64,000 nt of DNA from Pseudolysinimonas sp. (GCF_051954455.1 NZ_JBQCHS010000024.1:44122-108121), one strand, 5' to 3'; counted from the stretch's first letter, positions 22,885 through 52,224 are shown. Notes: generated from the sequence alone by a model not told the origin. Translations and numbers: made by a program.

Positions 22885-22921
22885 GCATGATGGCGGTCGG
22901 CGCGGGCGTAGGGTCGCGAGC

Positions 22922-24724: not shown

Positions 24725-24746
24725 CCCGAGGTGCGCTCGGCGCCGG

Positions 24747-25433: not shown

Positions 25434-25466
25434 AGGCTGCAAGCTACCGGAGTCGCGGAGGGCCCC

Positions 25467-31690: not shown

Positions 31691-32004
31691 GCCGGATCAC
31701 GACCCACGTCCTCGACGCGGTCCGCGGCCGGCCGGCGGCGGGCGTCGCGGTCACGCTGAGCGGGCCCGGCGGCACGGTCGCGACCGGCGCGACCGACGAC
31801 GACGGCCGCATCCGCGAGCTCGGCCCGGAGGAGCTCCCGGAGGGCGACTATCGGATCGAGTTCGCGACGGGCGCGTGGTTCGACGCGCAGGGCGTCGACG
31901 CGTTCTACCCGCGCGTCGTCATCGACTTCCGGCTGGGCTCCGGCCACCACCACGTGCCGCTGCTCCTGTCGCCCTTCGCGTACTCCACCTATCGCGGGTC
32001 CTGA
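31687..32004 (+). CDS. uraH: 5-hydroxyisourate hydrolase (transthyretin-like)
   Basis: ITTHVLDAVRGRPAAGV...YHVPLLLSPFAYSTYRGS (the C-terminal YRGS signature). GTGA overlap with uraD. Confidence 0.9.
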   Translation: MSRITTHVLDAVRGRPAAGVAVTLSGPGGTVATGATDDDGRIRELGPEELPEGDYRIEFATGAWFDAQGVDAFYPRVVIDFRLGSGHHHVPLLLSPFAYSTYRGS

Positions 32005-32021
32005 GCCGCGCGGACGCCGGC

Positions 32022-32486
32022 TCAGTACGCCGTGCGGGCCTCGTGCGCGAGCCACGCGTCGAAGGGGGCGGCGGCGTCGGCGGGGCGGTCCTCCTCGATC
32101 GTGACGTGCCACTCGGAGCGGGGCCGCTCGAACAGCTCGTAGAAGGCCCGGTCGTCGAAGCCGCCGCGGGCGGCGTCGTGCCGGTCCGCCGCGTAGACGA
32201 CCCTGTCGATCCGCGCCCAGAGCGCCGCCGACAGGCAGAGCGGGCACGGCTCGCACGAGGTGTAGAGCGTGGCGCCCTCGAGCGAGAAGGCGCCGGCCGC
32301 CGCGCAGGCGCGCCGGATGGCGACGACCTCGGCGTGCGCGGTGGGGTCGTTGTCGCGCGTGACGCGGTTCTGCCCCTCGGCGAGCACCGCGCCGTCCGCC
32401 CCGACGACGAGCGCGCCGAACGGGCCCCCGCCCGACGCGACGTTGTCGACCGCGAGCTCGACCGCGCGGTCCAGGTGGCCCGTCAT
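32022..32486 (-). CDS. CDA-fold nucleoside/nucleobase deaminase (guanine deaminase GuaD-type by context)
   Basis: The ATG at 32486 gives GGPFGALVV...HAEVVAIRRA...TSCEPCPLCLSA, a zinc-binding H(C)AE/PCxxC motif. Confidence 0.72.
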   Translation of the reverse strand: MTGHLDRAVELAVDNVASGGGPFGALVVGADGAVLAEGQNRVTRDNDPTAHAEVVAIRRACAAAGAFSLEGATLYTSCEPCPLCLSAALWARIDRVVYAADRHDAARGGFDDRAFYELFERPRSEWHVTIEEDRPADAAAPFDAWLAHEARTAY

Positions 32487-33373
32487 GCCGCACCCAGCGA
32501 CGCGCGCCACGCCTCGTGCGCCGCGGGGGCGTCCTCCCGCGAGATGGCGGCCTCGATGAGGCCGTAGGGCCGGTCGTCGGCGTGGAACACCTCGCCGTGC
32601 TGCTCGATGCCGAAGCGGCCGATGTCGTAGTCGAAGTGGTGCTTGTTGGGCGCCGTCAGCCGGATCTCCACGATCTCGGGATGCCGGTCCAGCACCGCCG
32701 TGCCCATGTGCCACAGCGTCTGCTGCAGTGCGAGCGAGTGCAGGGTCGCGAACTGCTCGATCATGAGCGCTCGCGCGGCGTCGTAGGAGGCGTCCCAATC
32801 GACGTCGGTCCCGGCGTAGCGCCACTTCACGTCGAGCGAGGTCGCCATGATCCGGTCGTCGGTCTCCGGGAGGGTCGTGTACCCGTCCTTCAGGAAGCCG
32901 TGGAACTCGGATCCGGTCGACTTGAGGATCACGAGGTCCTTGAGCCCCGCGATCACGTACTCGCCGGTCGCGTCGACGGTCACGGCCGCGGTGCGCACCT
33001 CCTGCCCCTTCCGCAGGAAGGTGTGGTCGTGCTCGGCGCCGCCGACCACCGCGCGCTCCCAGGCGTACTCCTCGATCTCGATCCGGGCTCCCGTCACGGG
33101 CGCGGTCTCGGCGACGAAGTGCCGGGCGAGCTCGAGTCCGTACTGCTCGATCGTCGCGATCCCCTTCTCCTTCGCGAAGGCGTAGGCGGTGTTCTTCTGC
33201 GTGTCGGTCGGCAGCACCTTCGACTGGTCGCCGACGAGGTACGCGTCGGCGAAGTCGCCGCGCAGGGCGGTCGTCACGTTGAGGTCGACGATCTCGTGCC
33301 GGGCGGTGTCGCGCACGATCCGCACGACGCGCGACTCGGCCTTGCCGTACTGGTGCTCGAGGCGGTAGGTCAT
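32483..33373 (-). CDS. pucL: Factor-independent urate hydroxylase (uricase)
   Basis: YGKAESRVVRIVRD...VLPTDTQKNT...LKSTGSEFHGF...SLALQQTLW...APNKHHF. Confidence 0.9.
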   Translation of the reverse strand: MTYRLEHQYGKAESRVVRIVRDTARHEIVDLNVTTALRGDFADAYLVGDQSKVLPTDTQKNTAYAFAKEKGIATIEQYGLELARHFVAETAPVTGARIEIEEYAWERAVVGGAEHDHTFLRKGQEVRTAAVTVDATGEYVIAGLKDLVILKSTGSEFHGFLKDGYTTLPETDDRIMATSLDVKWRYAGTDVDWDASYDAARALMIEQFATLHSLALQQTLWHMGTAVLDRHPEIVEIRLTAPNKHHFDYDIGRFGIEQHGEVFHADDRPYGLIEAAISREDAPAAHEAWRASLGAA

Positions 33374-34686
33374 CAGCGGGTCCTTTCGAGGAGATGTCCG
33401 AGGTCGGGGGCGGCGCCCCGCAGCCAGGTGCGGCGCACCTCGCCGCGCAGCTCCCGACCGTCGTAGGCGCTCACGGGGTTCCGGTGCAGCAGCTCGCCGG
33501 CGCGGATCACGCGGCGCGCGTCGGGGGCGAAGACGGCGAGGTCGGCGTCGGCGCCCGGCGCGATCGCGCCCTTCGCGGGGGTGAGGCCCGCGAACCGGGC
33601 GGGGGCGGACGACATCCACTCGACGACGCGCTCGAGCGGGACACCGCGCCCGCGCGCCGCCGTCCAGACGGCCGACAGGCCGAGCTGGAGCCCCGCGATC
33701 CCGCCCCAGGCGACGCCGAAGTCGCCGTCGCCGGCGAACTTGAGCTCCGCGGTCGAGGGGGAGTGGTCGGTCACCACGAGGTCGATGTCGCCGTCGAGCA
33801 GCCCCCGCCAGAGCGCGTCGCGGTTCTCCTCGGAGCGGATCGGCGGCGCGCACTTGTACTGGGTCGCCCCGTTCGGCACGCCCTCCGCGGCGAGCGAGAG
33901 GTAGTGCGGACAGGTCTCGACCGTGATCGGCAGCCCCTCGGCGCGCGCGGCGCGCAGCTCGGGGAGGGCGGCGGCGGACGACAGGTGCAGGATGTGGGCC
34001 CGCGCGCCCGTCCGACGCACGCCCGCGATCACGTTCGAGATCGCCGCGACCTCCGCCTCGTCGGGCCGCGACGCCACGTAGCGCCCGTAGTCGGGTCCGC
34101 CCGCGTTCGCGTGGTCGTGGAGCACGCGGGGGTCCTCGGCGTGCACGATGAGCAGCCCTCCGAATCCGGCGATCTCCTCGAGCGCGGCGTCGAGCTGCCG
34201 CGCGTCGAGGTGTCCGAACTCCGGCACCCCGCTCGGCGCCAGGAAGCACTTGAACCCGAAGACTCCGGCCTCCCAGAGGCCGCGCAGCGATCCCAGGTTC
34301 TCGGGCACGGCGCCGCCCCAGAAGCCGACGTCGATCCGCACCGCGCCGCGGGCGGCCTCCTGCTTGACCCGGAGGTTCTCGACCGTGGTGGTCGGCGGGA
34401 TGCTGTTGAGCGGCATGTCGAGCACGGCGGTCACCCCGCCGGCCGCGGCGGCCGCGGTCGCGGAGGCGAAGCCCTCCCAGTCGGTGCGGCCCGGCTCGTT
34501 GATGTGCACGTGCGTGTCGACGAGCCCTGGCAGCAGGACCTCGTCGGGGGCGAGTACGACGGTCTCGGCGGCCGGCTCGGGCCCGGCGTCGAGGGTCGCG
34601 ACCCGCCCGTCGCGCACGCCGACGGCCGCCTCGCGGAAGGCGCCGTCGACGAGGGCCCGCCCGCGGACCACGAGGTCGAGGCTCAT
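33373..34686 (-). CDS. allB: Allantoinase
   Basis: LPGLVDTHVHINEPGRTDWEGF...FKCFL...IVHAED...HILHLSS...VTDHSP. Confidence 0.9.
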   Translation of the reverse strand: MSLDLVVRGRALVDGAFREAAVGVRDGRVATLDAGPEPAAETVVLAPDEVLLPGLVDTHVHINEPGRTDWEGFASATAAAAAGGVTAVLDMPLNSIPPTTTVENLRVKQEAARGAVRIDVGFWGGAVPENLGSLRGLWEAGVFGFKCFLAPSGVPEFGHLDARQLDAALEEIAGFGGLLIVHAEDPRVLHDHANAGGPDYGRYVASRPDEAEVAAISNVIAGVRRTGARAHILHLSSAAALPELRAARAEGLPITVETCPHYLSLAAEGVPNGATQYKCAPPIRSEENRDALWRGLLDGDIDLVVTDHSPSTAELKFAGDGDFGVAWGGIAGLQLGLSAVWTAARGRGVPLERVVEWMSSAPARFAGLTPAKGAIAPGADADLAVFAPDARRVIRAGELLHRNPVSAYDGRELRGEVRRTWLRGAAPDLGHLLERTR

Positions 34687-35693
34687 GCGGCCAGCTCCGC
34701 GCCGATCTCGCCGAGGGCCGTCGCGTAGGCGACGTCGTCCCCGGGGGAGCGGCCCGGCCCGCCGGAGAGGTTCACGCCGACCACGCCGTCGAGGGCGAGC
34801 AGCTCACGCCCGAGCGCCACCGCCGCCTCGGCGCCCGCGGCCCGCGGGTCGGCGGCCGCGAGGATGCCGTCGAGGTACCCGGCCGGCAGCGCGAGGGCCG
34901 TGAAGCTCCGCAGCAGCTCCGCGCTCCCCCGGTCGACGACGACCGGGATGCACGGGATGAAGTCCATCGCGACCCCGAGCGCTCTCGCCTCCGCGATGAA
35001 CCGCGCGACGGGGCCGACCCCGCCGGCGTGGTTGACGAAGCAGACGACGGCACCGGCGCGCTCCTTCTCGCGCAGCCGCGCGGCGCGACGCCCGATCGGC
35101 GGCGCGGCGGGCGACTCGGCCACCGAGACGCGCAGGCCGGCGGCCCGGGCGAGCGCGGCGAGCCCGGTGCTGTCGAGATCGAAGACGGGGGCGGCGTCCG
35201 GTCGCGAACCGGTCAGCGTGTGGTCGCCCGTGACGCAATGCACCCCGAGGACCCCGGCGTCGGCGAGCGCCGCGAGCTCGCCCTCGAGCGCGACGCGGTT
35301 GCGGTCGCGGCAGGTGAGCCCGCTCCACACGGGGAGACCGGCATCCATGAGCAGGCGTGCGCGGTAGGCCGGCGGGAACTGCACCCGCTCCGCACCCGAG
35401 TCGCCGGCGAGCACGGCGCCCACCCGGCCGCGCAGGGCGTCGGCGCACGCCGCGAGCGAGGCCCGGTCCATCGGCCGCGCGGGGAGGTCCGCGACGACGA
35501 TCCGGTCGAGCCCGGAGGGACCGCCGCGCGCCTCGGGTCCCGGCCAGGTCACGGTCGGCTCGTCGACGAAGGCGCAGCGAAGGCCCCCGATCTCGCAGCC
35601 GCCGTCGTCGGCGACGCCGCCGCACGGGCCGAACGTCATGTGCTTGGGGCAGGCGGTGCCGGCGCTGCGGGGATCGAGCAGGTCAGCCCGCAC
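34683..35693 (-). CDS. MetF-like (methylenetetrahydrofolate reductase fold) protein with an N-terminal four-Cys motif
   Basis: GTG start at 35693. CPKHMTFGPCGGVADDGGCEIGGLRC gives the spacing C-x8-C-x8-C-x6-C. It is followed by an MTHFR-like barrel (LTCRDRNRVALEGELAALADAGVLGVHCVTGDH). Confidence 0.65.
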   Translation of the reverse strand: MRADLLDPRSAGTACPKHMTFGPCGGVADDGGCEIGGLRCAFVDEPTVTWPGPEARGGPSGLDRIVVADLPARPMDRASLAACADALRGRVGAVLAGDSGAERVQFPPAYRARLLMDAGLPVWSGLTCRDRNRVALEGELAALADAGVLGVHCVTGDHTLTGSRPDAAPVFDLDSTGLAALARAAGLRVSVAESPAAPPIGRRAARLREKERAGAVVCFVNHAGGVGPVARFIAEARALGVAMDFIPCIPVVVDRGSAELLRSFTALALPAGYLDGILAAADPRAAGAEAAVALGRELLALDGVVGVNLSGGPGRSPGDDVAYATALGEIGAELAA

Positions 35694-36318
35694 GGCGCGT
35701 CACCGTCCAGCCGTCCCCGCCCCGGGTGTCGGCGTGCCGGGCGTACTCGAGCCGGCGGGAAGCGGTCGCGGGGTCGCCCTGCCAGAAGGCGAGCCGGTGC
35801 GGCACGACGCGGTAGCCGATCCAGCTCGGCGCCGGGGCGAAGCCGTCCGCGTGCGCGGCTGCGAACCCCGCCCACGCCGAGCGGCGGTCGTCGAGCGGCA
35901 GGGTCGCGAACTCGTCGGTGTTCTGCCAGGCGAGCTGCTGGAGGTACGGGGAGCGGCGGGCGTACGCCGCGCGATCCGCCTCCGCACCGGCCGGCTCGGC
36001 GCGACCCTGCACGACGAGCTGGTGCGCGTCGGCGGCGAGGTGCATGACGAGCGCGACCGCGGGGTCCGCGGCGAGCTGCGCCGCCTTCCGCGACCGCGCG
36101 TCGGTGTGCAGCAGGAAGCCGTCGCGGCTCCAGCCGCTGAGGAGCACGGTCCGCGCGTCGGGCACGCCGCCGTCGAGGGTGGCGAGGGTCATGGTGGGAC
36201 GCACGGGGTCCTCGTCGTCGGGCAGCCAGGCGGCGACGAGCTCCCACGGGTCGGTCGGCGGCTCGTCCGGCAGGTGGAGGACCGCGGTGGCGCCGGCGCG
36301 GGCGGCCGCGGGGCTCAC
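35683..36318 (-). CDS. Pyridoxamine 5'-phosphate oxidase (PdxH-like) family flavoprotein
   Basis: DPWELVAAWL...MTLATLDGGVPDARTVLL...FLLHTDARSRKAAQL...GYRVVPHRLAFWQG...RRLEY. Confidence 0.7.
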   Translation of the reverse strand: MSPAAARAGATAVLHLPDEPPTDPWELVAAWLPDDEDPVRPTMTLATLDGGVPDARTVLLSGWSRDGFLLHTDARSRKAAQLAADPAVALVMHLAADAHQLVVQGRAEPAGAEADRAAYARRSPYLQQLAWQNTDEFATLPLDDRRSAWAGFAAAHADGFAPAPSWIGYRVVPHRLAFWQGDPATASRRLEYARHADTRGGDGWTVTRRAG

Positions 36319-37097
36319 GCGGCGCCGCCGCGGAAGCCGGCGATCTCGTGCAGCGCCTCGACGCCGCTGCGGATGCCGCGCTCCACGAGCTCGGCGCCGT
36401 GCTCCGCGTTCGCGCCCGTCGCGTCGCCGATCACCCCCGCGGGGTCGAAGTCGTTCGAGAGCCAGCCGAAGCTGACCGCCCCGCCGTTGAACTTGAGGTG
36501 GCGCAGCGCCGCCACGTCCTCCGGGATCCAGCGCGCGGCCTTGCTGATGTCGACGAGGTCGGGGCGCAGGTGCAGGATCACGCTCGTCTCGCCGTAGCCG
36601 CCGTGGATGCCGAGCCCCTTCTCGTCGGGCGACCCGTTCGCGCCGTCTCCCGCGGCTCCCGCCCCGGTGCCCATGAGGAAGGTGCGCAGCCCGTAGAGGC
36701 GCCGGATCTCGCGGAGCGCGACCTGCAGGAGGGCGACGTTGCCGCCGTGCCCGTTGAAGAACACGAGCGTGCGCGCCGGGGTCCGCGACACCGACTCGCC
36801 GATCTCGACGACCGTGCGCATGAGGGTCTCCCAGCCGATCCAGACCGTGCCCGGCGCCCAGTGGTGCTCGTCCGACTTCGAGTAGGCGATCGCCGGCAGC
36901 CGCCAGACATCGAGGCCGTCCTCGACGGCGGCGTCGACGAGCCGGCGCGAGATGAGGTCGGCCATGAGGTAGTCGGTGGCGAGCGGCAGGTGGGGTCCGT
37001 GGTGCTCGATCGACCCGACCGGCAGGACGACGACGGAGTCCGACGTGAGCGTGTCGGCGAGCACGGGCCCGGCGAGCTCGGTCAGCTCGCGCGTCAT
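36315..37097 (-). CDS. Creatininase-family amidohydrolase (creatininase / ArfB / MftE superfamily)
   Basis: VVLPVGSIEHHGPHLPLATD...FFNGHGGN...GIHGGYGETS. Confidence 0.8.
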   Translation of the reverse strand: MTRELTELAGPVLADTLTSDSVVVLPVGSIEHHGPHLPLATDYLMADLISRRLVDAAVEDGLDVWRLPAIAYSKSDEHHWAPGTVWIGWETLMRTVVEIGESVSRTPARTLVFFNGHGGNVALLQVALREIRRLYGLRTFLMGTGAGAAGDGANGSPDEKGLGIHGGYGETSVILHLRPDLVDISKAARWIPEDVAALRHLKFNGGAVSFGWLSNDFDPAGVIGDATGANAEHGAELVERGIRSGVEALHEIAGFRGGAA

Positions 37098-38488
37098 CGG
37101 GTCGCCCCCGGCGCGGCGGCCTCCTCGGCGGCCTGCGCCGCGGCCCCGAGCACCTTGGTGTGCTGCCGGCCGGTCTCGACCGTGGGCTCCGCGAGCTTGC
37201 CGGGGTTGAGTAGCCCGTGCGGGTCGGTCTCGGCCGCCAGCTCGGCCGTGCGCTCCGGCTGGTAGTCGACGAACCACTGGTGCGGGTTGTGGAATCCGAT
37301 GCCCAGCTCGCGGATCTTCGCGAAGCCCGCGTAGACGTCCTCCGCGCCCGTGTAGCGGCCTGCGAGCATGCCGATCGGGCCCTGTTGCTGCCCCTCGATG
37401 TGCAGCATCCCGCCGGGGTAGATCGCCTGCAGCTCGTCGACCCGGTCGATGAGCCCCTCGCCGCCGACCTCGACGTGGAAGTAGGTGTCGGGGTAGGCCT
37501 TCTGCAGCCACTCGATCGGGTGGTTGTAGCTCGTCATGGACACCCGCATGGTGTGCTGCGCCCCCTCCTTCACCGCCTCCACCCGGCCGCCGGCCTCCTC
37601 GACGAGGCGCGTCGCCTCGGGGACACTGGCGACGTCGAGGATCGCGCGCAGGCTCGCGCGCCCGGCGGGCAGCCCCTCGTCGGCGGGCAGCGCCTCCGCG
37701 AGCGTCGGCTGGTCGCCGGAGACGAGGCGCGGGGTCGGCTGCAGCTGCGAGAACGTGCGGATGAGGCGGAAGGCGTCGTGGTAGTCCTCGAAGCTCGCGT
37801 AGAACGCGCGCCACTCCTGCAGCGGCTCGAGTGCGACCTTGACCCGCGCGATGATGCCGGCCGTGCCGTAGTTGTGGATGTACGGCTCGGTCGCCTCGCC
37901 GACCAGGTGGATGAGCTCCGCGTCCGGCACCGCGTGCACGACGTCGGCCTCGAGCACGTATCCGGTGTGCAGCATGCCGTTCTTGATCGACCCGGTGCCG
38001 CCGGAGCCGCCCGAGACGAAGCCGCCGATCGTCGAGTTGGCCGTCGACGGGTACATGAGCACCTGCTGGCCGGCCCGGTTCGCGGCCTGCTCGACCGCGA
38101 CCATCGTCGCACCGGCCTCCGCGACGAGCCAGCCGTCACCGACCTCGCTGATGGCGCGCGCCTTCGAGGTGTCGAGAACGAGTCCGCCCTCGAACGGGAT
38201 CGACTGCCCGTAGTTGCCGGTCCCCTTGCCGCGGGGCGTGATCGGGACGCCGTGGCGCACGGCGGCTCCGACGACGAGCGCGATCTCCTCCGCCGATCCC
38301 GGGTAGGCGACAAGCTGTGCGCGACCGAGCGGCAGCTGCTCGCTGATCACGGGGGAGAGGTAGGAGCCGTCGCGCGACGCCCGGTCGAGGGCGGCGTCCT
38401 CCGTGCTCACCGCCTTGTCGCCGATCAGCTCGCGGAGCTCGGCGGCGAGGGCCTCGATGGTCGGGGCGTCGACGCGGGTGGTGCTCAT
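37094..38488 (-). CDS. FAD-binding oxidoreductase (PCMH/VAO-type, FAD_binding_4)
   Basis: The ATG at 38488 gives VAYPGSAEEIALVVGAAVRHGVPITPRGKGTGNYGQS...STIGGFVSGGSGG. Confidence 0.8.
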   Translation of the reverse strand: MSTTRVDAPTIEALAAELRELIGDKAVSTEDAALDRASRDGSYLSPVISEQLPLGRAQLVAYPGSAEEIALVVGAAVRHGVPITPRGKGTGNYGQSIPFEGGLVLDTSKARAISEVGDGWLVAEAGATMVAVEQAANRAGQQVLMYPSTANSTIGGFVSGGSGGTGSIKNGMLHTGYVLEADVVHAVPDAELIHLVGEATEPYIHNYGTAGIIARVKVALEPLQEWRAFYASFEDYHDAFRLIRTFSQLQPTPRLVSGDQPTLAEALPADEGLPAGRASLRAILDVASVPEATRLVEEAGGRVEAVKEGAQHTMRVSMTSYNHPIEWLQKAYPDTYFHVEVGGEGLIDRVDELQAIYPGGMLHIEGQQQGPIGMLAGRYTGAEDVYAGFAKIRELGIGFHNPHQWFVDYQPERTAELAAETDPHGLLNPGKLAEPTVETGRQHTKVLGAAAQAAEEAAAPGATR

Positions 38489-38499
38489 GGTGGTGCCTT

Positions 38500-39264
38500 T
38501 CAGTGCATGACCATCCCGCCGGTGACGTTGATCGCCTGGCCGGTCAGGTAGTCGGAATCGGAGGAGGCGAGGAACAGGGCGACGCCCGCCACGTCGGAGG
38601 GCTCGCCGAGCCGGCCGAGGGGCGACCAGCTCGACCAGAGCGCCACGTCCTCCTCGGTGCGGGTCGCGGCGCCCATGTCGGTGAGGATGAAGCCGGGGCA
38701 GAGCGCGTTCGCGGTGATGTGGTGGCATCCCCACTCCAGCGCGGCCGCCCGCGTGAGGGCGACGACCGCGGACTTCGATGCGGCGTAGTGCGCCTCGTTC
38801 GCGCCGCCCTTCTTGGCGGCCATGCTCGCCAGGTTGATGATCTTGCCGCCGTGGTCGGCGTCGAGCCAGTGGCGCGCCGCCGTCTGCATGGTCGTGAGCA
38901 TCGCGCGGGCGTTGATCGCGAACATGCGGTTCCAGTCCTCGACGGTGATGTCGAGCAGCGGCTTCAGCTGCAGGATGCCGGCCGAGTTGACCAGCACGTC
39001 GAGGCCGCCGAGGCCCATGATCGCGGCGCGCACGGCGTCCTCGGTGCCGGCGGGGTCGAGCAGGTCGACCTCGTGGAAGGCGCCGCCGATCGAGTCCGCG
39101 GTGGCGCGCCCCTCCTCGGCGAGGCGGTCGAGGATCGCCACCCGTGCGCCCTCCCGGGAGAAGCGGGCGGCGATCTCGCCGCCGATGCCGCGGGCCCCGC
39201 CGGTGACCACGACCCGCGCGCCGTCGAGGCGTCGGGAGGCGGGCACCGGCAGGGCGTCGTTCAT
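38500..39264 (-). CDS. Classical short-chain dehydrogenase/reductase (SDR)
   Basis: VVVTGGARGIGGEIA, NSAG, and YAASKSAVVALTR (YxxxK). Confidence 0.9.
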   Translation of the reverse strand: MNDALPVPASRRLDGARVVVTGGARGIGGEIAARFSREGARVAILDRLAEEGRATADSIGGAFHEVDLLDPAGTEDAVRAAIMGLGGLDVLVNSAGILQLKPLLDITVEDWNRMFAINARAMLTTMQTAARHWLDADHGGKIINLASMAAKKGGANEAHYAASKSAVVALTRAAALEWGCHHITANALCPGFILTDMGAATRTEEDVALWSSWSPLGRLGEPSDVAGVALFLASSDSDYLTGQAINVTGGMVMH

Positions 39265-39283
39265 CGCGAGCGGATCCGTCGGC

Positions 39284-40462
39284 TCAGAAGCCGAGGCTGA
39301 TCTTCTTGTCGATGAACTCGTTGGTGAAGAGATCGCTCGCCTTCAGGCCGGCCTTCGGCGCGGAGCCGGTGGCCGTGAAGATCGGCGTGTCGATGTCGAT
39401 GATCTTCTGGATGCGCGACTCGTCCATGTCGCCGACGTAGCCGTTGTCCCCGTCGGACGCGATCTTGAGGTCCTTCATCGTCTTCACGCCGTACGCCGCG
39501 ACCTGCGCGTCGTAGACCCAGCCGTTGTTGTAGGCGGTCACGAGGTCGACGATCAGCTTGTTGGCCGCGGTCGGGTCCTTGAAGTAGTCCACGTCGGCCT
39601 GCTGCAGGACCGGCACGAGCTTCTTGAGGCACGGCGTCAGCTTCTCGAGGTCGCCGGTGCGCACCGAGAGCGCCTCCGGGTAGATCGGGTAGCCGGCGTC
39701 GTTGATGGTCTGGAACGCGACCTTCTTGTTCCAGGCCGCGACCTCGTGCGAATAGATGTACGGCTCGGCGGTCGCGAAGCCCTGCTGGCCCGAGACGCCC
39801 TTGTCGGCGACGAACTTCGCCGGGGTCCCGTCGTAGCTGCCGTCCGTCTGGCTCTCCTTGAGGATGCCGGCGCCGGTCAGGTACGACATGTACGCCGCGC
39901 CCTTGAAGTACCGCACGGTCGCGCCGGGCTTCAGCGCCTCGCCGAGCTCCTTGATGGTCTTGACCTTCGGGTAGACCGACGGGTCCCACATGATCATCTG
40001 CGGGGACGTGTCGTTCTCGGCCATGACCGCGGTCATCGGGAACTTGTCGCTGAACTGCACGGCCTCGTCGGTCGAGATGTAGCCCATCGTGATCGACTTG
40101 TCGGAGTAGACCTGCGAGCTGACCGTCTGGTAGCCGATGGCGGGGCCGCCGGAGCGGACCTCGATCTTGACCCCGGTGGGGGCGCCCTGCGAGTAGAGGT
40201 CGCCCGTGACGATCTTCTTGTCGGAGTCGATCTTGGGGTTCGGTCCGACCATCTCGTAGAGCTGGCCGTGGTCGGCCTCCGGGTTCCAGTCGGTCTGGAA
40301 CACGATCGTCGAGGGGCAGACGCTCGCGAGGTCGACCTTGGCGCCCTTGGCGGCGGCCGGGGTCGAGTCGCCGCCGCTGCCGCCGCCGGAGCAGGCGGCG
40401 AGCAGGGCGGCGCTCGCCGCGGCGAGGCCGATCACGGCGAGGATGCGCGGTCTGTGGTGCAT
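39284..40462 (-). CDS. ABC transporter substrate-binding lipoprotein, NitT/TauT (SsuA/ThiY/NMT1-like) family
   Basis: The ATG at 40462 is followed by a signal peptide with lipobox (LLAACSGG). FQTDWNPEADHGQLY resembles the ThiY/NMT1-type fold as I recall it. Confidence 0.75.
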   Translation of the reverse strand: MHHRPRILAVIGLAAASAALLAACSGGGSGGDSTPAAAKGAKVDLASVCPSTIVFQTDWNPEADHGQLYEMVGPNPKIDSDKKIVTGDLYSQGAPTGVKIEVRSGGPAIGYQTVSSQVYSDKSITMGYISTDEAVQFSDKFPMTAVMAENDTSPQMIMWDPSVYPKVKTIKELGEALKPGATVRYFKGAAYMSYLTGAGILKESQTDGSYDGTPAKFVADKGVSGQQGFATAEPYIYSHEVAAWNKKVAFQTINDAGYPIYPEALSVRTGDLEKLTPCLKKLVPVLQQADVDYFKDPTAANKLIVDLVTAYNNGWVYDAQVAAYGVKTMKDLKIASDGDNGYVGDMDESRIQKIIDIDTPIFTATGSAPKAGLKASDLFTNEFIDKKISLGF

Positions 40463-40524
40463 GGGATCTCCTGTCGGGAACGTGAGGTGGAGCAGGGGAT
40501 GGTGCGGTGGTGCCGGTGGTGGGA

Positions 40525-41376
40525 TCAGAACTCGTACCAGCGGCCGATGGCCAGCCGGGCGAGGGCGCCGAAGACGACGAACACCAGGACGCCGAGGAGC
40601 GACGCGGTGAGGATCGCGGCGAAGGTGCCGGGGCCGTTGAGGCGCGAGGTGGCGACCTGGATGAGGACGCCGAGGCCCGGCGTCCCGCGCTGGAAGAACT
40701 GGTCGCCCACGATCGCGCCGATGACGCTCAGGCCCGCCGCCGTCCGCAGGCCGACGAAGATCGACGGGAGCGCCGCGGGGAAGCGGAGCTTCACGAGCGT
40801 GGTCAGCCGGCCGGCGCCCTGCAGCTGGAACAGCTCCCGCTGCCCCTTGTCGGCCGAGAGCAGGCCGAACAGGGTGTTCGACACGAGCGGGAAGAGCGAG
40901 ATCATCGTCGTGACGAGCACCCGGCTGAAGAACTCGTAGCCGAACAGGGTGCCGATGAGCGGCACGAGCGCGAGGATCGGGATGCACTGCAGCACGACCG
41001 CGTACGGGTAGAAGGAGCGCTCGACCCACTTCGCCTGCGCCATGAGCGTCGCCCACAGGACGCCGATCACGATCGCGGCCGCGAGGCCGGTGAGGGCGAC
41101 CAGGCTCGAGTTGAGCAGGTTCTGCCGCAGCTGCGGGCCGAAGAAGGGGTCCCAGAGCTGGGCGACCACCTGGTGCGGGTACGGCCAGAGCCAGGTCTGC
41201 TTCTGGACCTTGTCGTAGTAGAAGGCGATCAGGTAGGCGACGCCGACGAGGCCGATGAAGACGACGACCGGCTGCCAGACCGACATGTAGCGACGGCCGC
41301 GGTAGACCGCGCGGCGCAGCTCGCGGGTCTCGTTGCGCTCGACGGCGGTCGTCGAGGAGACCAGGGATCCGGACAT
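40525..41376 (-). CDS. ABC transporter permease (NitT/TauT type)
   Basis: Six TM segments and an EAA-like loop (SADKGQRELFQLQGAGRLTTLVKLRFPAALP). Confidence 0.85.
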   Translation of the reverse strand: MSGSLVSSTTAVERNETRELRRAVYRGRRYMSVWQPVVVFIGLVGVAYLIAFYYDKVQKQTWLWPYPHQVVAQLWDPFFGPQLRQNLLNSSLVALTGLAAAIVIGVLWATLMAQAKWVERSFYPYAVVLQCIPILALVPLIGTLFGYEFFSRVLVTTMISLFPLVSNTLFGLLSADKGQRELFQLQGAGRLTTLVKLRFPAALPSIFVGLRTAAGLSVIGAIVGDQFFQRGTPGLGVLIQVATSRLNGPGTFAAILTASLLGVLVFVVFGALARLAIGRWYEF

Positions 41377-42143
41377 CAGCTGTGCCCCTCTCGGAGAGCG
41401 TGCGAGACCTGGCCGACGAGCTCGGCGAACTCGGCGGTGAAGCGGATGTCGGGGTCGCGCGGCATCGGGAACGGCACCTCGAACTCGTCGACGATGGTGC
41501 CGGGCCGGCCCGACATGACGATGACGCGGGTCGAGAGGTAGACCGCCTCCGACACCGAATGGGTGATGAACAGCCCCGCGAACCGCTTCTCGACGAAGAG
41601 CCGCAGCAGCTCGTCGTTGAGGCGCTCGCGGGTGATCTCGTCGAGGGCGCCGAACGGCTCGTCGAAGAGGAAGAGCTCGGGGTCGAGGGTGAGCGAGCGC
41701 GCGAGCGAGGTGCGCATCTTCATGCCGCCCGAGAGCTGCTTCGGCAGGCTCTTCTCGAAGCCGGTGAGGCCGACGAGGTCGATGGCCTCCTGCGCCTTCG
41801 CGGCGCGCGCCGCCTTCGGCGTCCTGTGCAGCTCCGCGAGCAGCTCAACGTTGCGCTGCACGGTGCGCCACTGCAGCAGGGTCGCGTCCTGGAACACGTA
41901 GCCGATGCGGTTCGTCGTCGTCGTCGCGCTGCCGTGGCTGTGCTTCTCGAGCCCCGACGCGATCCGCAGCAGCGTCGACTTGCCGCAGCCGGACGGTCCC
42001 ACCACGGTGACGAACTCGCCGCGCTTCACGGTCAGGTCGACGTCGTGCAGTGCGACCACCCCGTTCGGGAAGGTCATCTCGACGTCGCGGAAGTCGAGCA
42101 GGGTGTCGGTCGCGGTGGCGGCCGGGGGAGAGATGACGCTCAT
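41376..42143 (-). CDS. ABC transporter ATP-binding protein
   Basis: Walker A GPSGCGKST, signature LSGGMKMR, Walker B LFLFDEP. Confidence 0.9.
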   Translation of the reverse strand: MSVISPPAATATDTLLDFRDVEMTFPNGVVALHDVDLTVKRGEFVTVVGPSGCGKSTLLRIASGLEKHSHGSATTTTNRIGYVFQDATLLQWRTVQRNVELLAELHRTPKAARAAKAQEAIDLVGLTGFEKSLPKQLSGGMKMRTSLARSLTLDPELFLFDEPFGALDEITRERLNDELLRLFVEKRFAGLFITHSVSEAVYLSTRVIVMSGRPGTIVDEFEVPFPMPRDPDIRFTAEFAELVGQVSHALREGHS

Positions 42144-43372
42144 CGAGCTGCCTCCAGGAGGGGGGAGCGGGCGGATGCCGGCGCGGCGACGTGCCGGGTG
42201 AGCTCGGACCGGGCGACGATCCGGCCGGCGTGGAGGACGATGCGGTCGGCCGGCGCGCTCGCGACGACCTCGGCGAGCCCGGAGGCGCGCACGGCGAGCA
42301 GGTCGGCGGCGGCACCCGGGACGGGTCCGGCGGCGGGCAGGCCCATGACCTCGCGGGCGCCGTCGGCGACGAGGCCGTACGCCTCGTCGATCGTCAGGTG
42401 CCCGGCGACGACGAGCAGCATGGCGGTCTCGAGCGCGTCGCCGCGGCCGAGCGGGTTGAAGGGGTCGCGCACGTTGTCGGCGCCGGCGGCGACCCGGGCT
42501 CCGGCGTCGAGGAGGGTGCGCAGCGCGGTGAGGCCGCGCGGGGTGCCGACCGGCGACTCCCAGCCCTGGAGGTAGAGGTTGGTGATCGGGTTCGCGATCA
42601 CGCCGACGCGCGAGGCGACCACCTCGGCGACCACGGGGGCGAGCTCCGCGTCGGTCATCATCCCGAGGCGCACGCAATGCCCTGCGGAGACGTTCTGCGG
42701 CCAGTCGCGCACGATGCGGGCGAACTCGAGGAGGGTGTCGGCGCCATCGAGGCTCTCGTCGGTGTGCAGGTCGACCGGGGTCCCGCGGCGCTCGGCGATC
42801 GCGAGGAGGCGGCGGAGGTCGGTGACCGGGTCCGCCGCGAGGTGCGGGGCGCCTCCGACCGCGTCGACCCCCGCGTCGAGCGCGGCCTCGACGGCCGCGT
42901 CCGGCGCCTCGGGGCCGGCGAGGGCCACGAGCTCCAGGTCCATGAGGCCCGCCAGGTGCTCGCGTACCGTGACCAGCGCGCGCACCCCGCGCAGGGCGTC
43001 GCCGGTCGTGAGGATGTCGACGTGGGTGCGGATCGCGGTCGTGCCGTTCGCGAGCATCTCGAGCGCCTGCGCGAGGGCGCGTTCGGCGATGTCGTCCTCG
43101 GTCATCGAGATCGTGTGCGCCTTCCAGGAGGCGATGGCGAGGCCGAGGTCGCCCATCGGCGGCTGGATCGCATCCCAGGAGCGCGCCTTGTCGAGGTGGG
43201 CGTGCGGGTCGGCGGCCGCGGTGAGCAGGGTGTAGCCGGTGAGGTCGAGCTCGTCCGGTCCGACGGTGCCGCCGGCGGCCGGGACGACGGCCTCCACGCG
43301 TCCGCGCGCGAGCCTCACGTCGACCGTGCTGCCATCGGCGAGAGCGGCGCCGCGCAGGGCGCTCACCGGCAT
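42140..43372 (-). CDS. CodA-like amidohydrolase (cytosine/creatinine deaminase family)
   Basis: The ATG at 43372 (alternative GTG at 43387) gives AAADPHAHLDK...IRTHVDI...VDLHTDES...SAGHCV...AAGADNVRDPFNPLGRGD. Confidence 0.78.
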   Translation of the reverse strand: MPVSALRGAALADGSTVDVRLARGRVEAVVPAAGGTVGPDELDLTGYTLLTAAADPHAHLDKARSWDAIQPPMGDLGLAIASWKAHTISMTEDDIAERALAQALEMLANGTTAIRTHVDILTTGDALRGVRALVTVREHLAGLMDLELVALAGPEAPDAAVEAALDAGVDAVGGAPHLAADPVTDLRRLLAIAERRGTPVDLHTDESLDGADTLLEFARIVRDWPQNVSAGHCVRLGMMTDAELAPVVAEVVASRVGVIANPITNLYLQGWESPVGTPRGLTALRTLLDAGARVAAGADNVRDPFNPLGRGDALETAMLLVVAGHLTIDEAYGLVADGAREVMGLPAAGPVPGAAADLLAVRASGLAEVVASAPADRIVLHAGRIVARSELTRHVAAPASARSPLLEAAR

Positions 43373-43437
43373 CGGCAGCTCGGGCACGGGCGGCTCCTCG
43401 GGGGCGGGGAATGTTGATGGGCTCAACACCCCTGACG

Positions 43438-43458: not shown

Positions 43459-43564
43459 CGTGTGACGGATCCGTCTCGGCACGTAAACTCCTGCGGCCGA
43501 CCGTCTTCTGCGGCCGACCCGCTGTGGTTGTCTGTCCACGCCCGCCCCGCGAGAGGAGTCCGCC

Positions 43565-44158
43565 GTCAGCACCATCGACGCCGCGCCCGATGCCGCCGCC
43601 GCCCAGATCGGCCCCCGGATCCGGCGCGTCCGGCACACCCGCGGGCTCACCCTGGTCCAGCTGGCCGACCGCGCCGAGCTCTCGCATCCCTTCCTGAGCC
43701 AGCTCGAACGCGGCCTCGCGCGGCCGAGCTTCACCTCGCTCGAGCGGATCGCCCGCGCCCTCGGCACGAGCCAGCTGGAGCTGCTCGCCGGCGCGGAGGA
43801 GGACGCGGATGCGCGCCGCGACCAGCCGGCCGTGAGCGTCGTCCGCCGCGGCGACGGCACGCAGGGCGCCTACGGCGAGGGCGACGCGCGCATGCTCGTC
43901 CACGGCCACCGCCGCTTCCACCCGATGGAGATCACGGGAGCGAACCGCGACTGGGGCGTGCTGTTCTCGCACGCCGAGGACGAGTTCCTGTACGTGCTCG
44001 ACGGCCGCATCGAGCTCGACCTCGGGCCCGAGGGGATGTTCGTGCTCGCGACCGGCGACGCCGTGCACTGCGACGGTGGGGTGCCGCACCGCTGGCGTGC
44101 GATGGGTGACGAGGGCTACCGGCTGCTCGTGGTCAAGGACGCGCCCCGGCGGCTGTGA
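43565..44158 (+). CDS. XRE-family HTH plus cupin transcriptional regulator. The start codon is unresolved: the first canonical start is GTG 43832, which would delete the HTH
   Basis: In one frame: IGPRIRRVRHTRGLTLVQLADRAELSHPFLSQLERGLARPSFTSLERIARALG (HTH_3), then a cupin (FLYVLDGRIELDL...GDAVHCDGGVPHRW). A gagaggag SD lies at 43551-43558. The codon 6 nt downstream is GTC (43565). Confidence 0.6.
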   Translation, partial: VSTIDAAPDAAAAQIGPRIRRVRHTRGLTLVQLADRAELSHPFLSQLERGLARPSFTSLERIARALGTSQLELLAGAEEDADARRDQPAVSVVRRGDGTQGAYGEGDARMLVHGHRRFHPMEITGANRDWGVLFSHAEDEFLYVLDGRIELDLGPEGMFVLATGDAVHCDGGVPHRWRAMGDEGYRLLVVKDAPRRL

Positions 44159-45124: not shown

Positions 45125-45139
45125 GCCGGGTCGCCCGGC
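45125..45139. terminator. Short hairpin between two convergent stops
   Basis: gccggg-tcg-cccggc lies between the stops at 45116 (+) and 45139 (-). Confidence 0.3.
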
Positions 45140-46437: not shown

Positions 46438-46457
46438 GAAACGAGCCTGACATCCGC

Positions 46458-50880: not shown

Positions 50881-50952
50881 GTGTCGGCCACGTAACACCC
50901 GGGTCGGGTCGCCGCGGCGAGGGCGCCGGGGCGGCGATGCGAGGATGGACGC

Positions 50953-52152: not shown

Positions 52153-52224
52153 GTGGTCATGGTGCCACTCCGCGCGCCGGTAGGCTGTGGGGCACCCCTT
52201 GCTCGCCGACGTAGAGGATCCTCC

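Follow-up and report, generated by a model that had tools for sequence, protein, structure and literature searches.

Twelve minus-strand genes between positions 32022 and 43372 of the window (the whole 64,000-nucleotide stretch of Pseudolysinimonas sp. DNA that was analysed), here numbered g1 to g12 in the direction of transcription, join an allantoinase, a uricase and a guanine deaminase to an ABC importer and six enzymes that the initial annotation could place in no urate or allantoin route. The locus therefore raises the question of whether these genes form one system and, if so, what compound enters it. We found that the proximal genes belong to a widely conserved, separately regulated module, and its fusion to urate genes suggests that purine degradation is fed here by a route not yet described.

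Structure of the gene string and its purine genes

Independent re-derivation of start and stop codons confirmed the head-to-tail packing of the twelve genes (Table 1), in which the GC content at the third codon position is 0.94 to 0.99. The 1-nt TGATG overlaps at 41376 and 33373, the 11-nt overlap at 35693/35683 and the intergenic gaps of 62, 19 and 11 nt were as originally read. The 4-nt overlaps described as ATGA are of that form at g1/g2, g6/g7, g9/g10 and g11/g12, whereas the g7/g8 overlap is GTGA, with a GTG start at 36318. A terminator scan of the minus strand gave no site within the string, in agreement with the earlier reading. An inverted repeat that covers the stop codons of g12 and the convergent HIU hydrolase gene was not called by the scan; it lacks a T-run and is a possible bidirectional terminator. 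Because overlaps of 1 and 4 nt are the norm in other operons of the window (for example at 10966/10969, 12279/12282, 31687/31690 and 50059/50062), the packing was taken as evidence of an operon and of nothing unusual.

The three distal genes are ordinary purine catabolism, as had been proposed: g10 and g11 scored above curated cutoffs, and g12 matched guanine deaminase 1WKQ/1TIY over its full length (152.7 bits, E 6e-44). The purine set of the window comprises XDH, XdhC, MocA, uricase, HIU hydrolase, OHCU decarboxylase, allantoinase, allantoate amidohydrolase, a class V aminotransferase and a GuaD-type guanine deaminase. The XDH-family genes carry the Pfam domains FAD_binding_5, Fer2_2, Ald_Xan_dh_C and MoCoBD_1/2, and their operon likely starts with the ATG at 50856.

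Table 1. Positions of genes and sites at the locus, with the basis of each assignment
Feature	Position	Strand	Basis or remark
Inverted repeat TGAGCCG-N9-CGGCTCA	32002-32024		Sequence reading
g12, CDA-fold guanine deaminase, B. subtilis GuaD type	32022-32486	-	PDB 1WKQ/1TIY match
g11, cofactor-independent urate oxidase (uox)	32483-33373	-	TIGR03383, 351 bits (cutoff 168)
g10, allantoinase AllB	33373-34686	-	TIGR03178, 533 bits (cutoff 358)
g9, MetF-fold TIM barrel, N-terminal four-Cys MetV/MTHFR_C-type motif	34683-35693	-	AF2 and Foldseek
g8, PNPOx-fold FMN protein	35683-36318	-	PNPOx_N and PNP_phzG_C
g7, creatininase-family metallo-amidohydrolase	36315-37097	-	Pfam Creatininase, 206 bits
g6, VAO-type FAD flavoprotein	37094-38488	-	FAD_binding_4
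g5, short-chain dehydrogenase/reductase, accessory	38500-39264	-	adh_short_C2, 199 bits
g4, lipoprotein substrate-binding protein, ThiY/NMT1/TauA fold	39284-40462	-	AF2 model and Foldseek
g3, ABC permease	40525-41376	-	BPD_transp_1; SsuC/TauC-like
g2, ABC ATPase, NitT/TauT type	41376-42143	-	Pfam ABC_tran
g1, CodA-like metallo-aminohydrolase	42140-43372	-	Cytosine deaminase equivalog, 184 bits (cutoff 403)
Palindromic operator TGTTGATGGGCTCAACA, TGTTGA-N5-TCAACA	43412-43428		g1/xre divergent promoter region
XRE-family HTH and cupin regulator (xre), divergent from g1	43565-44158	+	NCBIfam HTH matches
NAD(P)H-flavin reductase (fnr), C-terminal plant-type [2Fe-2S] ferredoxin domain, phthalate-dioxygenase-reductase-like	44169-45116	+	NCBIfam
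Second amidohydrolase-superfamily aminohydrolase, TrzN/8-oxoguanine-deaminase-like	45139-46440	-	NCBIfam and PDB matches
XDH-family genes	47423-50856	-	FAD subunit 50059-50856; fused 2Fe-2S/molybdopterin subunit 47423-50062

Importer and enzymes of the proximal genes

The description of g1 to g9 as an uncharacterised module was upheld: their linkage is recurrent, they reach the superfamily level only, the tests for named enzymes (CodA, creatininase, ArfB, MftE and PdxH) failed, and in the literature we found no described pathway and no paper assigning the module a function. All of the initial family calls were reproduced by Pfam or NCBIfam with the exception of the g4 binding protein, for which sequence searches of Pfam, NCBIfam and the PDB gave no match; the likeness of g4 to ThiY/NMT1 holds at the level of the fold and not at that of the sequence. 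The AF2 model of g4 (pLDDT 87) had the thiamin-binding protein 4NMY as its best Foldseek match, followed by ThiY (3IX1), with TM values of 0.74 to 0.75 at about 15% identity, and the g4 family has at least 3489 members. The g2 ATPase matched the SaoA, NtrCD and TauB-like models of NCBIfam, every one under cutoff.

The g1 protein retains the metal ligands and is 25% identical to E. coli CodA and 35% identical to a deaminase encoded in a pterin/lumazine cluster of Paracoccus. A cytosine deaminase was ruled out by the score (Table 1) and by the replacement of CodA Gln156 by Gly and of Asp314 by Asn. The nearest relatives with an annotated context are in the Paracoccus pterin/lumazine-to-xanthine cluster and in Aminobacter, beside PuuD/PuuE. 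A GTG at 43387, 6 nt past GAGGAG, may replace the ATG at 43372 as the start of g1.

The g6 flavoprotein, with invariant motifs that include TPRGxGTGNYGQ, is the signature enzyme of the module. It matched PDB 6V42/6V43 over its full length (152 bits), a Hoeflea phototrophica protein (A9D9D1) that all sources name only generically and on which our literature search found no paper. For g7 the curated models gave 134 bits for MftE (cutoff 172), 74 for creatininase (cutoff 235) and 19 for ArfB (cutoff 180), so that the proposed analogy to ArfB and its formamidopyrimidine substrate is weak. Creatininase was also rejected on the metal ligand Glu122, which is Gly in the NGHGGN motif of g7. Similarly, g8 keeps the FMN-contact residues but not the PdxH substrate residues K72, Y129, S137, R197 and H199, and PdxH was ruled out (85 bits against a cutoff of 180).

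Two Pfam matches of g9 were each under threshold; its AF2 model (pLDDT 88) best matched MetF in Foldseek (E 6e-11, 19% identity). Of the four cysteines, C24, C33 and C40 do not vary and at least 90% of sequences have C15, and relatives of g9 were found in 352 species genomes. It is accessory but recurrent. The g5 gene is missing from the Nocardioides and Luteimicrobium copies and from many metagenome copies of the module, and both g5 and g9 are missing from several copies that are otherwise complete.

Regulatory region, extent and distribution of the module

The boundaries first drawn around the string proved too narrow: the XRE-cupin regulator, the Fer2-FNR reductase, the second aminohydrolase and a conserved operator travel with the module. 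The operator palindrome has an exact match in the window, compared to a chance expectation of 0.13 at up to two mismatches, and in 1.59 Mb of related loci 35 of 38 matches lay 45 to 150 nt upstream of g1 orthologues. It marks the module promoter in dozens of genomes and heads module operons in metagenome loci, including a relocated ABC operon. A site with one mismatch, TGTCGAGGGAGTCAACA, is present upstream of the XDH operon (50856-50872); in other genomes no copy of the palindrome was seen to precede allB, uox or XDH, the retrieved flanks mostly ending short of these positions. Separately, the only other window copy of the heptamer TTACGTG precedes the XDH operon.

The xre orthologues carry HTH_3/HTH_31 and Cupin_2 domains and are syntenic with g1 in most loci, and the XRE-cupin protein is presumed to be the repressor that binds the palindrome. 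Because there is no in-frame ATG, GTG or TTG upstream of its HTH, we infer a start at GTC 43565, 7 nt past AGGAG. The adjoining fnr gene, conserved in this position, matched PaaE-, BenC- and GbcB-type reductases in NCBIfam, and its orthologues have DmmA-like_N, NAD_binding_1 and Fer2 domains. The second aminohydrolase scored 252 bits with the 8-oxoguanine deaminase model NF006055, under the cutoff of 532, and 196 bits with PRK12393; PDB matches were TrzN (200 bits) and 3HPA (178 bits). Its orthologues (61 to 75% identity, most 64 to 75%) flank the module in many loci.

The comparison of gene neighbourhoods showed that the single twelve-gene operon is not the general unit but a fusion peculiar to the Pseudolysinimonas lineage. 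Most Microbacteriaceae keep g1-g8 apart from g9, which is on the opposite strand, and have a divergent allB-uox-guaD set as a third unit. Well beyond this genome, the module is again linked to uricase, allantoinase and guanine deaminase. In Psychromicrobium the order is XDH-XdhC-amidohydrolase-fnr-xre followed by g1-g8-uox-guaD; in Luteimicrobium it is g8-allB-uox-guaD, where g8 overlaps allB; and a distant lineage (g6 at 34% identity) has the module, XDH, guaD, uricase and HIUH in collinear order. XDH is on one side of the module and uricase on the other in at least three families of actinobacteria and one distant lineage, and many metagenome contigs have the same association. On the other hand, about half of the long module-bearing contigs have no purine gene within 10 kb, and Cellulomonas marina, Spongisporangium, Dermatophilaceae, Agromyces, Microbacterium and Nocardioides have g1-g8 (with or without g9), xre and fnr but no accompanying purine genes. 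A reduced module is present in alphaproteobacteria, where the Hoeflea and Mesorhizobium clusters (identities: g1 30%, g2 45%, g3 38-40%, g4 24%, g6 28-36%, g7 33-39%) add RidA and two flavodoxin-like FMN reductases; there were no purine genes beside the module in the two loci examined.

On this evidence, the 11.35-kb string combines two units. The first, unit A, has a core of g1, g2-g4, g6 and g7, joined in actinobacteria by g8, with g5 and g9 as accessory genes, and it takes in the divergent regulator, the reductase and the second aminohydrolase; the homologues in Hoeflea and Mesorhizobium suggest that this core is ancient. The second, unit B, comprises the ordinary urate-to-allantoate genes allB-uox-guaD. 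The two are joined head to tail in the Pseudolysinimonas lineage, and therefore a transcript from the operator-controlled promoter ahead of g1 probably covers all twelve genes.

A proposed feeder role and its alternatives

We propose, with about even confidence, that the module is a feeder for the uptake and processing of an amino-oxo N-heterocycle of the purine type, unit A being joined to unit B. An amino-substituted oxo-N-heterocycle, such as a purine that is oxidised or alkylated, or a 2-amino-4-oxopyrimidine compound resembling pterin or lumazine, would be taken up by g4 and the ABC importer, and this compound or its product would bind the cupin of the regulator, with derepression at the palindrome. 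Exocyclic amino groups would be removed by g1 and the second aminohydrolase. The g6 protein may dehydrogenate or hydroxylate the ring or a substituent, with g8 and/or the Fer2-FNR reductase as redox partners (in alphaproteobacteria, the two FMN reductases), and g7 may open a cyclic amide or remove an N-acyl group. The product would then be passed to xanthine dehydrogenase, uricase and allantoinase, whose genes lie on either side of the module. Among the substrate ideas of the initial annotation, which included FapyGua, creatinine, B6 and pterin, only the general one of an N-heterocycle feeding purine catabolism has comparative support. In favour of the feeder reading we count the separability of the module and its dedicated operator, the independent recurrence of the link to purine genes, the Paracoccus and Aminobacter neighbourhoods of g1 relatives, the matching protein families under the proteobacterial xanthine/urate riboswitch, and the operator-like site and TTACGTG heptamer that precede the XDH operon of the window. 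Counting against the feeder role, g12 already accounts for guanine deamination, and XDH, uricase, HIUH and OHCU decarboxylase make up a known route with no step missing, so that standard purines do not require the module. In addition, the nearest structural relatives of g4 bind thiamin or aminopyrimidines rather than purines, and g5, g8 and g9 have no specific chemistry to account for them in this scheme.

An unlikely alternative is that a non-purine N-heterocycle, such as a creatinine-, imidazolone- or hydantoin-type five-membered ring or a thiamin-derived aminopyrimidine, is degraded as a nitrogen source and that the purine neighbours merely reflect clustering of nitrogen-scavenging genes. 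The founding activities of the g1 and g7 superfamilies are both on creatinine, g4 is structurally closest to thiamin- and formylaminopyrimidine-binding proteins, the alphaproteobacterial and several actinobacterial copies have no nearby purine genes, and other lineages add RidA, isochorismatase and amidase as partners, reminiscent of small-heterocycle ring cleavage. However, the recurrence of the XDH-module-uricase arrangement and the departure of g7 from creatininase argue against it, profile searches did not find creatinase, sarcosine oxidase, N-methylhydantoinase, TenA or thiamin genes, and no TPP riboswitch was found. We regard as decidedly unlikely an actinobacterial pterin/lumazine-to-xanthine route in which other enzymes stand in for the DHLI isomerase and the UbiD decarboxylase used by Cupriavidus. 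It would fit the XDH-family molybdoenzyme, XdhC and MocA-like gene that flank the module, the folate/pterin-binding MetF fold of g9 and the similarity of g1 to the CDA-like deaminase of the Paracoccus cluster, which has the architecture of Cupriavidus cluster I; g8, g6 and g5 could oxidise the C6 side chains of natural pterins. Yet the 35% identity of g1 is no closer than that to a purine-cluster homologue, g9 is dispensable in many copies, the Amidohydro_2 isomerase, UbiD and UbiX were not found in the window, and Doi et al. report that Actinomycetota, a Microbacterium among them, have another cluster, one that does contain DHLI.

The initial annotation had envisaged import of a formamidopyrimidine (FapyGua or FapyAde) or formylaminopyrimidine, ArfB-like deformylation by g7 and conversion of the product to urate. 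This is very improbable despite the ThiY-like fold of g4, the membership of ArfB in the creatininase family and the 8-oxoguanine-deaminase-like gene in the conserved unit: g7 is nearer to MftE than to ArfB, no enzyme present would plausibly re-close triaminopyrimidines or convert them to urate, and g6, g8, g9 and the reductase are left unexplained. Salvage or biosynthesis of a cofactor (vitamin B6, thiamin, folate or a mycofactocin-like product) in place of catabolism is barely tenable, since the curated equivalog scores are all under cutoff, g8 lacks the PdxH substrate residues, the mftA-D/F context is absent, the uricase linkage is repeated, and two aminohydrolases with an inducible-type repressor/operator layout are typical of catabolism; in its favour are the PNPOx, MetF and Thi5/ThiY-like folds of g8, g9 and g4 and MftE as the best curated match of g7.

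With regard to known systems, the feeder role that we favour can be set beside several. Creatinine catabolism has the CodA-like aminohydrolase and creatininase-family superfamilies in common with the module, but its creatinase, N-methylhydantoinase, carbamoylsarcosine amidase and sarcosine oxidase were not found here, g7 lacks Glu122 (74/235 bits) and g1 lacks CodA Gln156 and Asp314. The ThiXYZ formylaminopyrimidine importer is of the same NitT/TauT ABC type and binding-protein fold (ThiY 3IX1 being the second-best structural match), but identity is about 15%, g4 has no NMT1 Pfam match, and there is neither a thiamin salvage context (YlmB, TenA, ThiD) nor a TPP riboswitch. The Hoeflea phototrophica 6V42/6V43 protein, annotated as an 'FAD/FMN-containing dehydrogenase', is a g6 homologue inside the alphaproteobacterial counterpart of the module, in which RidA and two flavodoxin-like reductases replace g8, fnr, g5 and g9.

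The pterin/lumazine cluster I of Cupriavidus sp. LA-1 (PMC12391406) is a feeder of another N-heterocycle into xanthine, like the role proposed here, and, as in the window, a deaminase occurs in it together with an XDH-family molybdoenzyme, XdhC and MocA. Its markers DHLI (an Amidohydro_2 pair), UbiD/UbiX decarboxylase and a GTPase chaperone are absent from the window, and the families of g6, g7, g8 and g9 are absent from cluster I. The puc cluster of B. subtilis and the hpx cluster of Klebsiella resemble the window set from XDH through uricase, allantoinase and GuaD, but they have NCS1/NCS2 permeases where there is an NMT1-fold ABC importer here, and they lack the VAO-type flavoprotein and the creatininase-family, PNPOx-like and MetF-like proteins; in the window, the importer and six extra enzymes are placed between XDH and uricase. 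In Proteobacteria, the xanthine/urate (NMT1-motif) riboswitch controls NMT1/TauA-type binding proteins, PRK12393-like (8-oxoguanine/guanine-deaminase-like) amidohydrolases, TadA-like deaminases and PDR-like reductases (PMC7373994). The riboswitch operons have dioxygenases where the module has the g6/g7/g8 trio, and the NMT1 RNA motif was not detected. The regulon ties the same protein families as are present here to purine oxidation, with regulation by RNA there and, presumably, by a protein (XRE-cupin) and a DNA palindrome here.

The twelve-gene string and its surroundings

Third-position GC (0.94-0.99, in a window of ~73% G+C) and an independent walk along start and stop codons reproduced the twelve minus-strand genes, g1 to g12, that the initial annotation had called. 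The junctions between them were also as described, except that the g7/g8 overlap is GTGA and not ATGA, since g8 starts with GTG. A minus-strand scan inside the string found no terminator-like site, as had been claimed; an inverted repeat (7 bp, lacking a T-run) covers the stop codons of g12 and of the convergent HIU hydrolase gene. The tight packing indicates an operon, and the twelve genes are presumably co-transcribed, yet such packing is ordinary for this Pseudolysinimonas sp. genome because 1- or 4-nt overlaps are frequent at other same-strand junctions of the window.

The assignment of the three distal genes to textbook purine catabolism was verified by score or similarity in each case. 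The g10 protein passed the equivalog test for the allantoinase AllB (TIGR03178, 533 bits relative to a cutoff of 358), as did the g11 protein for factor-independent urate oxidase (TIGR03383, 351 bits, cutoff 168). The g12 protein is a GuaD-type guanine deaminase of the CDA fold, with full-length similarity (residues 5-146 of 154) to the Bacillus subtilis enzyme (1WKQ/1TIY, 152.7 bits, E 6e-44).

The string is part of a purine/heterocycle island of ~28 kb between ilvC and serA that looks like an insertion. The neighbourhood around the island is given over to branched-chain amino-acid biosynthesis (ilvD, ilvB, ilvN, ilvC ... serA, leuB, ilvE). Past g12, at lower coordinates, there are genes for HIU hydrolase, OHCU decarboxylase, a MocA-like nucleotidyltransferase, allantoate amidohydrolase, a class V aminotransferase, an AtzH-like/amidase fusion and an FmdA/AmdA-family amidase. 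Upstream of g1, at higher coordinates, lie a divergent XRE-cupin regulator gene (xre), a Fer2-FNR reductase gene (fnr), a TrzN/8-oxoguanine-deaminase-like amidohydrolase gene, xdhC and a two-gene xanthine-dehydrogenase (XDH)-family enzyme. The genes within the twelve-gene stretch are as first described; the unit runs 3 kb further than the extent originally given. The two amidases may belong to the same pathway as the module, by which we mean g1-g8 (with or without g9), xre, fnr and the second amidohydrolase, and the ThiF/MoeB-rhodanese fusion plausibly serves XDH in molybdopterin sulfur transfer. By GC3 the strand choice is ambiguous between the FmdA/AmdA-family frame and a minus-strand frame.

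Coordinates of features in the window and in the alphaproteobacterial loci
Feature	Position	Strand	Remark
tRNA gene	9405-9477	+	sole Rfam match in the window
ilvC	21801-22829		borders the island
Purine/heterocycle island	22913-51195
Second PNPOx-fold protein	22913-23551	+	island edge
ThiF/MoeB-rhodanese fusion	23579-24733	-	island edge
Alternative frame	24747-26345	-	strand ambiguous by GC3
FmdA/AmdA-family amidase	25212-26516	+	adjoins allantoate-degrading genes
AtzH-like domain fused to amidase-signature enzyme	26546-28084	+	adjoins allantoate-degrading genes
g12 to g1	32022-43372	-
Operator site at g1	43412-43428
TTACGTG heptamer	43480-43486		upstream of operator site at g1
xre 5' end	43487-43832
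Second amidohydrolase	45139-46440	-
Operator-like site at XDH	50856-50872		one mismatch
TTACGTG heptamer	50889-50895		upstream of operator-like site at XDH
serA	51781-53820		borders the island
Cluster with 6V42/6V43 protein, locus L087	4507-12574		conserved Hoeflea-Mesorhizobium
Cluster with 6V42/6V43 protein, locus L088	4518-12583		conserved Hoeflea-Mesorhizobium

Identity of the proximal proteins

None of the nine proximal proteins has a characterised close homologue. Each of g1-g9 matched at the superfamily level only and failed the test for a named enzyme, and a full-text literature search found no description of the cluster, which bears out the earlier view that these genes lie outside known urate and allantoin routes.

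The g1 protein is 25% identical to Escherichia coli CodA and falls below the cytosine deaminase (EC 3.5.4.1) equivalog (NF005759, 184 bits relative to a cutoff of 403). The metal ligands and proton shuttle of CodA (HxH, His214, Glu217, His246 and Asp313) are invariant in the alignment A4, as H57, H59, H203, E206, H232 and D299 of g1. In g1 and its orthologues, CodA Gln156 is replaced by Gly and Asp314 by Asn; from CodA structures, we take these two to be the pyrimidine-recognising residues. The g7 protein belongs to the creatininase family (PF02633, 206 bits, cutoff 31) and is below the creatininase (EC 3.5.2.10) equivalog (TIGR04448, 74 bits compared to 235). Five creatininase active-site residues are retained, and the binuclear-site ligand Glu122 of the H-Y-E motif is replaced by Gly (NGHYEN of Pseudomonas putida aligns with NGHGGN). 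The score of g7 against the mycofactocin peptidase MftE was 134.5 bits (TIGR03964, cutoff 172), and radical-SAM or mft genes (mftABCDF neighbourhood) were found neither in the window nor in the related loci. Similarly, g8 is below the equivalog of PdxH, the pyridoxine/pyridoxamine 5'-phosphate oxidase (TIGR00558, 85 bits compared to 180). The alignment A6 shows no variation at the FMN-core residues R67, S87, R88, K89 and Q111 (E. coli numbering), and zero of five residues that, judging from PdxH structures, presumably bind substrate and phosphate (K72, Y129, S137, R197 and H199) are conserved in g8 or its orthologues. The residue and score tests thus rule out g1, g7 and g8 as a true cytosine deaminase, creatininase and PdxH, respectively.

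Two of the proteins were placed by their predicted structures. In the AlphaFold model of g9 (pLDDT 88), a MetF barrel follows a conserved four-Cys motif, and the best 50 Foldseek matches were all of the TIM-barrel MTHFR fold (E 6e-11, TM up to 0.76, ~19% identity); the PF02219 score was 19.1 bits, under the cutoff of 24, and there was no match among PDB sequences. The g9 sequence is the same as that of a protein deposited from Pseudolysinimonas sp. (Microbacteriaceae). For g4, the binding protein (SBP) of the ABC importer, there was no match to Pfam (including NMT1), NCBIfam HMMs or PDB sequences. Its model (pLDDT 87) has the periplasmic-binding-protein fold of the NMT1/THI5/TauA group (Foldseek matches 4NMY and 3IX1, TM 0.74-0.75) and is nearest to a thiamin-binding SBP and ThiY at ~15% identity.

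The VAO-type FAD protein g6 matches PDB entries 6V42/6V43 across its full length. The 6V42 entry, from Hoeflea phototrophica, carries a generic name only and was discarded as a source of function. In Hoeflea and Mesorhizobium, the cluster that encodes this homologue contains genes for a creatininase-family protein, RidA, an NMT1 SBP, an ABC ATPase, a permease, an amidohydrolase, the FAD protein (FAD_binding_4) and two flavodoxin-like reductases, and it appears to be uncharacterised. Its products include homologues of six module proteins (g1, g2, g3, g4, g6 and g7); therefore, the core is old and spans phyla.

The second amidohydrolase scores under the 8-oxoguanine deaminase equivalog (NF006055, 252 bits compared to 532). 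Its best PDB match is TrzN, the triazine hydrolase of Arthrobacter (200 bits), ahead of 8-oxoguanine deaminases, and because of this ranking the module-linked family may be a candidate natural stock from which the xenobiotic triazine hydrolase was recruited.

Distribution and control of the module

A scan with g9, taking one genome per species, found relatives in 352 species. We fetched 80 loci and compared them by a tblastn matrix and by gene-order strings. Among these loci, the collinear 12-gene string was confined to Pseudolysinimonas, Schumannella and others like them. The commonest Microbacteriaceae layout, with arrowheads for strand, was <guaD <uox <allB >g9 (0.6-8 kb of unrelated genes) <g8...<g1 >xre >fnr, and therefore consists of three transcription units. 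Copies of g1-g8 with xre and fnr and without purine genes were found in Cellulomonas, Agromyces, Microbacterium, Spongisporangium and one Dermatophilaceae genome. Three further cases came from contexts anchored on g4. The Nocardioides copy is without g5, g9 and purine genes; that of Psychromicrobium has the order XDH-XdhC-amidohydrolase-fnr-xre, followed by g1-g8-uox-guaD; and in Luteimicrobium allB overlaps the end of g8. The SDR gene g5 and g9 are accessories.

The genes between g9 and g8 in other genera (a TPP-dependent decarboxylase, a kynureninase-like gene and transporters) were set aside as pathway clues, being unrelated insertions. In Herbiconiux (loci L027, L058, L010, L022 and L014) the insert is a TPP-dependent 2-keto-acid decarboxylase gene, which in some of these loci has a kynureninase-like gene alongside; it probably represents an aromatic amino-acid or auxin-type cassette that is unrelated to the module.

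The module recurs in 80 more loci obtained by a metagenome scan with the g6 alignment, and in about half of the long contigs purine genes lie within 10 kb; g9-like genes also stand next to g1 in lineages of 40-45% identity. In a distant lineage, with 34% identity to g6, the module, XDH and uricase genes form a single collinear cluster: a g1-like deaminase, an FMN reductase, an ABC importer with an NMT1 SBP, an isochorismatase-family hydrolase, an amidase, a creatininase-family hydrolase, the FAD protein, an 8-oxoguanine-deaminase-like amidohydrolase, XdhC, three XDH subunits, a CDA-fold deaminase, uricase and HIU hydrolase. Within its copy of the module, the distant metagenome locus L166 carries both an amidase and a hydrolase of the isochorismatase family. 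The proposal of a new twelve-gene system holds in part: the candidate system is real and conserved, and its linkage to uricase recurs elsewhere, but among the fetched loci the exact string is limited to Pseudolysinimonas, Schumannella and the like, and the operon of twelve genes represents a local fusion.

The module has an operator of its own. Using k-mer conservation across 28 g1/xre intergenic regions, we found the palindrome TGTTGA-N5-TCAACA directly 3' of a TAnnnT-like element. It occurs 38 times in 1.59 Mb of related loci, 35 times at a distance of 45-150 nt upstream of g1. The metagenome loci likewise have it upstream and, once, ahead of a relocated ABC operon; therefore, importer and enzymes belong to a single regulon that has its own regulator, presumably the XRE-cupin protein acting as a repressor. 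Another inverted repeat upstream of g1, GAAAC-N5-GTTTC, is not conserved in orthologous regions and was rejected as the operator. Within the window, an operator-like site with the sequence TGTCGAGGGAGTCAACA abuts the probable ATG start codon of the gene for the FAD subunit of XDH, and the only two TTACGTG heptamers in the 64 kb are each upstream of an operator site, which hints that XDH and the module may be co-regulated. Riboswitch control (xanthine/NMT1 motif or TPP) was rejected, as neither motif gave an Rfam match at gathering or permissive thresholds; for the xanthine riboswitch NMT1-motif RNA this applied to both the window and the alphaproteobacterial loci.

At the 5' end of xre, in-frame ATG, GTG and TTG codons are all absent upstream of the HTH. 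There is a strong Shine-Dalgarno sequence (AGGAG or GAGGAC), and 5-7 nt after it comes GTC or GTT, in the place that GTG or ATG occupies in other genera. The same pattern is found in the related loci L030, L051, L065, L016, L020, L017, L035 and L004, and a canonical start is absent altogether in 6 of 31 orthologues. These features point to a possible conserved non-canonical GUC/GUU initiation codon, which perhaps keeps repressor levels low.

Possible substrates and significance

We give about an even chance to the reading that the module, as a separately regulated unit, takes up and pre-processes an amino-substituted N-heterocycle, most likely of a purine-type class that enters catabolism at xanthine or urate. 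Import by g2-g4 would be followed by deamination by g1 and the second amidohydrolase, and flavin-dependent dehydrogenation or hydroxylation by g6 with g8 and/or the Fer2-FNR protein; lastly, g7 would open a cyclic amide by hydrolysis or remove an acyl group. The purine-type class is favoured because the module has repeatedly and independently been placed between XDH and uricase, and because the nearest context-annotated relatives of g1 are in a pterin/lumazine-to-xanthine cluster and a PuuD/PuuE purine cluster. It is also favoured because the characterised Cupriavidus pathway is a precedent for feeder routes and because like protein families are controlled by a proteobacterial xanthine/urate riboswitch, which governs NMT1/TauA-type SBPs, PRK12393-like amidohydrolases, TadA-like deaminases and PDR-like reductases (PMC7373994).

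A different heterocycle, for instance a creatinine/hydantoin-type ring or a thiamin-derived aminopyrimidine, would fit the many module copies without purine neighbours and the structural relatives of g4, which bind thiamin or pyrimidines; set against the recurrent placement beside XDH and uricase, we consider it plausible though rather unlikely. A pterin-specific route is more doubtful still. Cluster I of the Cupriavidus pterin/lumazine pathway comprises a DHLI Amidohydro_2 pair, a UbiD/UbiX decarboxylase and a GTPase chaperone (Doi et al. 2025, PMC12391406), but none of these genes, including those for the defining DHLI and UbiD enzymes, was present among the scanned genes of the 64-kb window. 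The initial annotation had proposed a substituted aminopyrimidine or ring-opened purine as substrate and had noted, among other points, that the creatininase superfamily includes ArfB, the deformylase of a formamidopyrimidine (Fapy) nucleotide; the likeness of g7 to ArfB amounts to 19 bits (NF033501, cutoff 180), and the Fapy model is very improbable. Cofactor salvage, at odds with the residue tests and with the catabolic style of regulation, is the least probable of these explanations.

Returning to the purine-type reading, we propose more tentatively, and as somewhat doubtful, that g6, g7, g1 and the NMT1-fold importer, with lineage-specific flavin partners, would form a new enzymatic route from an abundant modified purine or related heterocycle to an XDH/uricase intermediate, including a new creatininase-family reaction. 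Candidate substrates would be oxidised guanine products (imino- or guanidino-hydantoins), N-alkylpurines and pteridines, and the new reaction may be the opening of an imidazolone/hydantoin-type or pyrazinedione ring. Identification of the substrate would give a function to thousands of database proteins named only by superfamily, would yield a new ligand-responsive regulator/operator pair, and would probably add a feeder branch to the turnover of nitrogen heterocycles in soil and water.

Purine catabolism is regarded as a closed textbook pathway. Here, six to nine uncharacterised enzymes, an importer, and a presumed repressor with its operator are wedged between XDH and uricase in several actinobacterial families and one distant lineage, and the core extends to the alphaproteobacteria, from which the 6V42 crystal structure comes. 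All of the parts are from known superfamilies, and the combination of importer, repressor, hydrolases and flavoenzymes follows the logic of a catabolic operon, with a real chance of new chemistry in the module.
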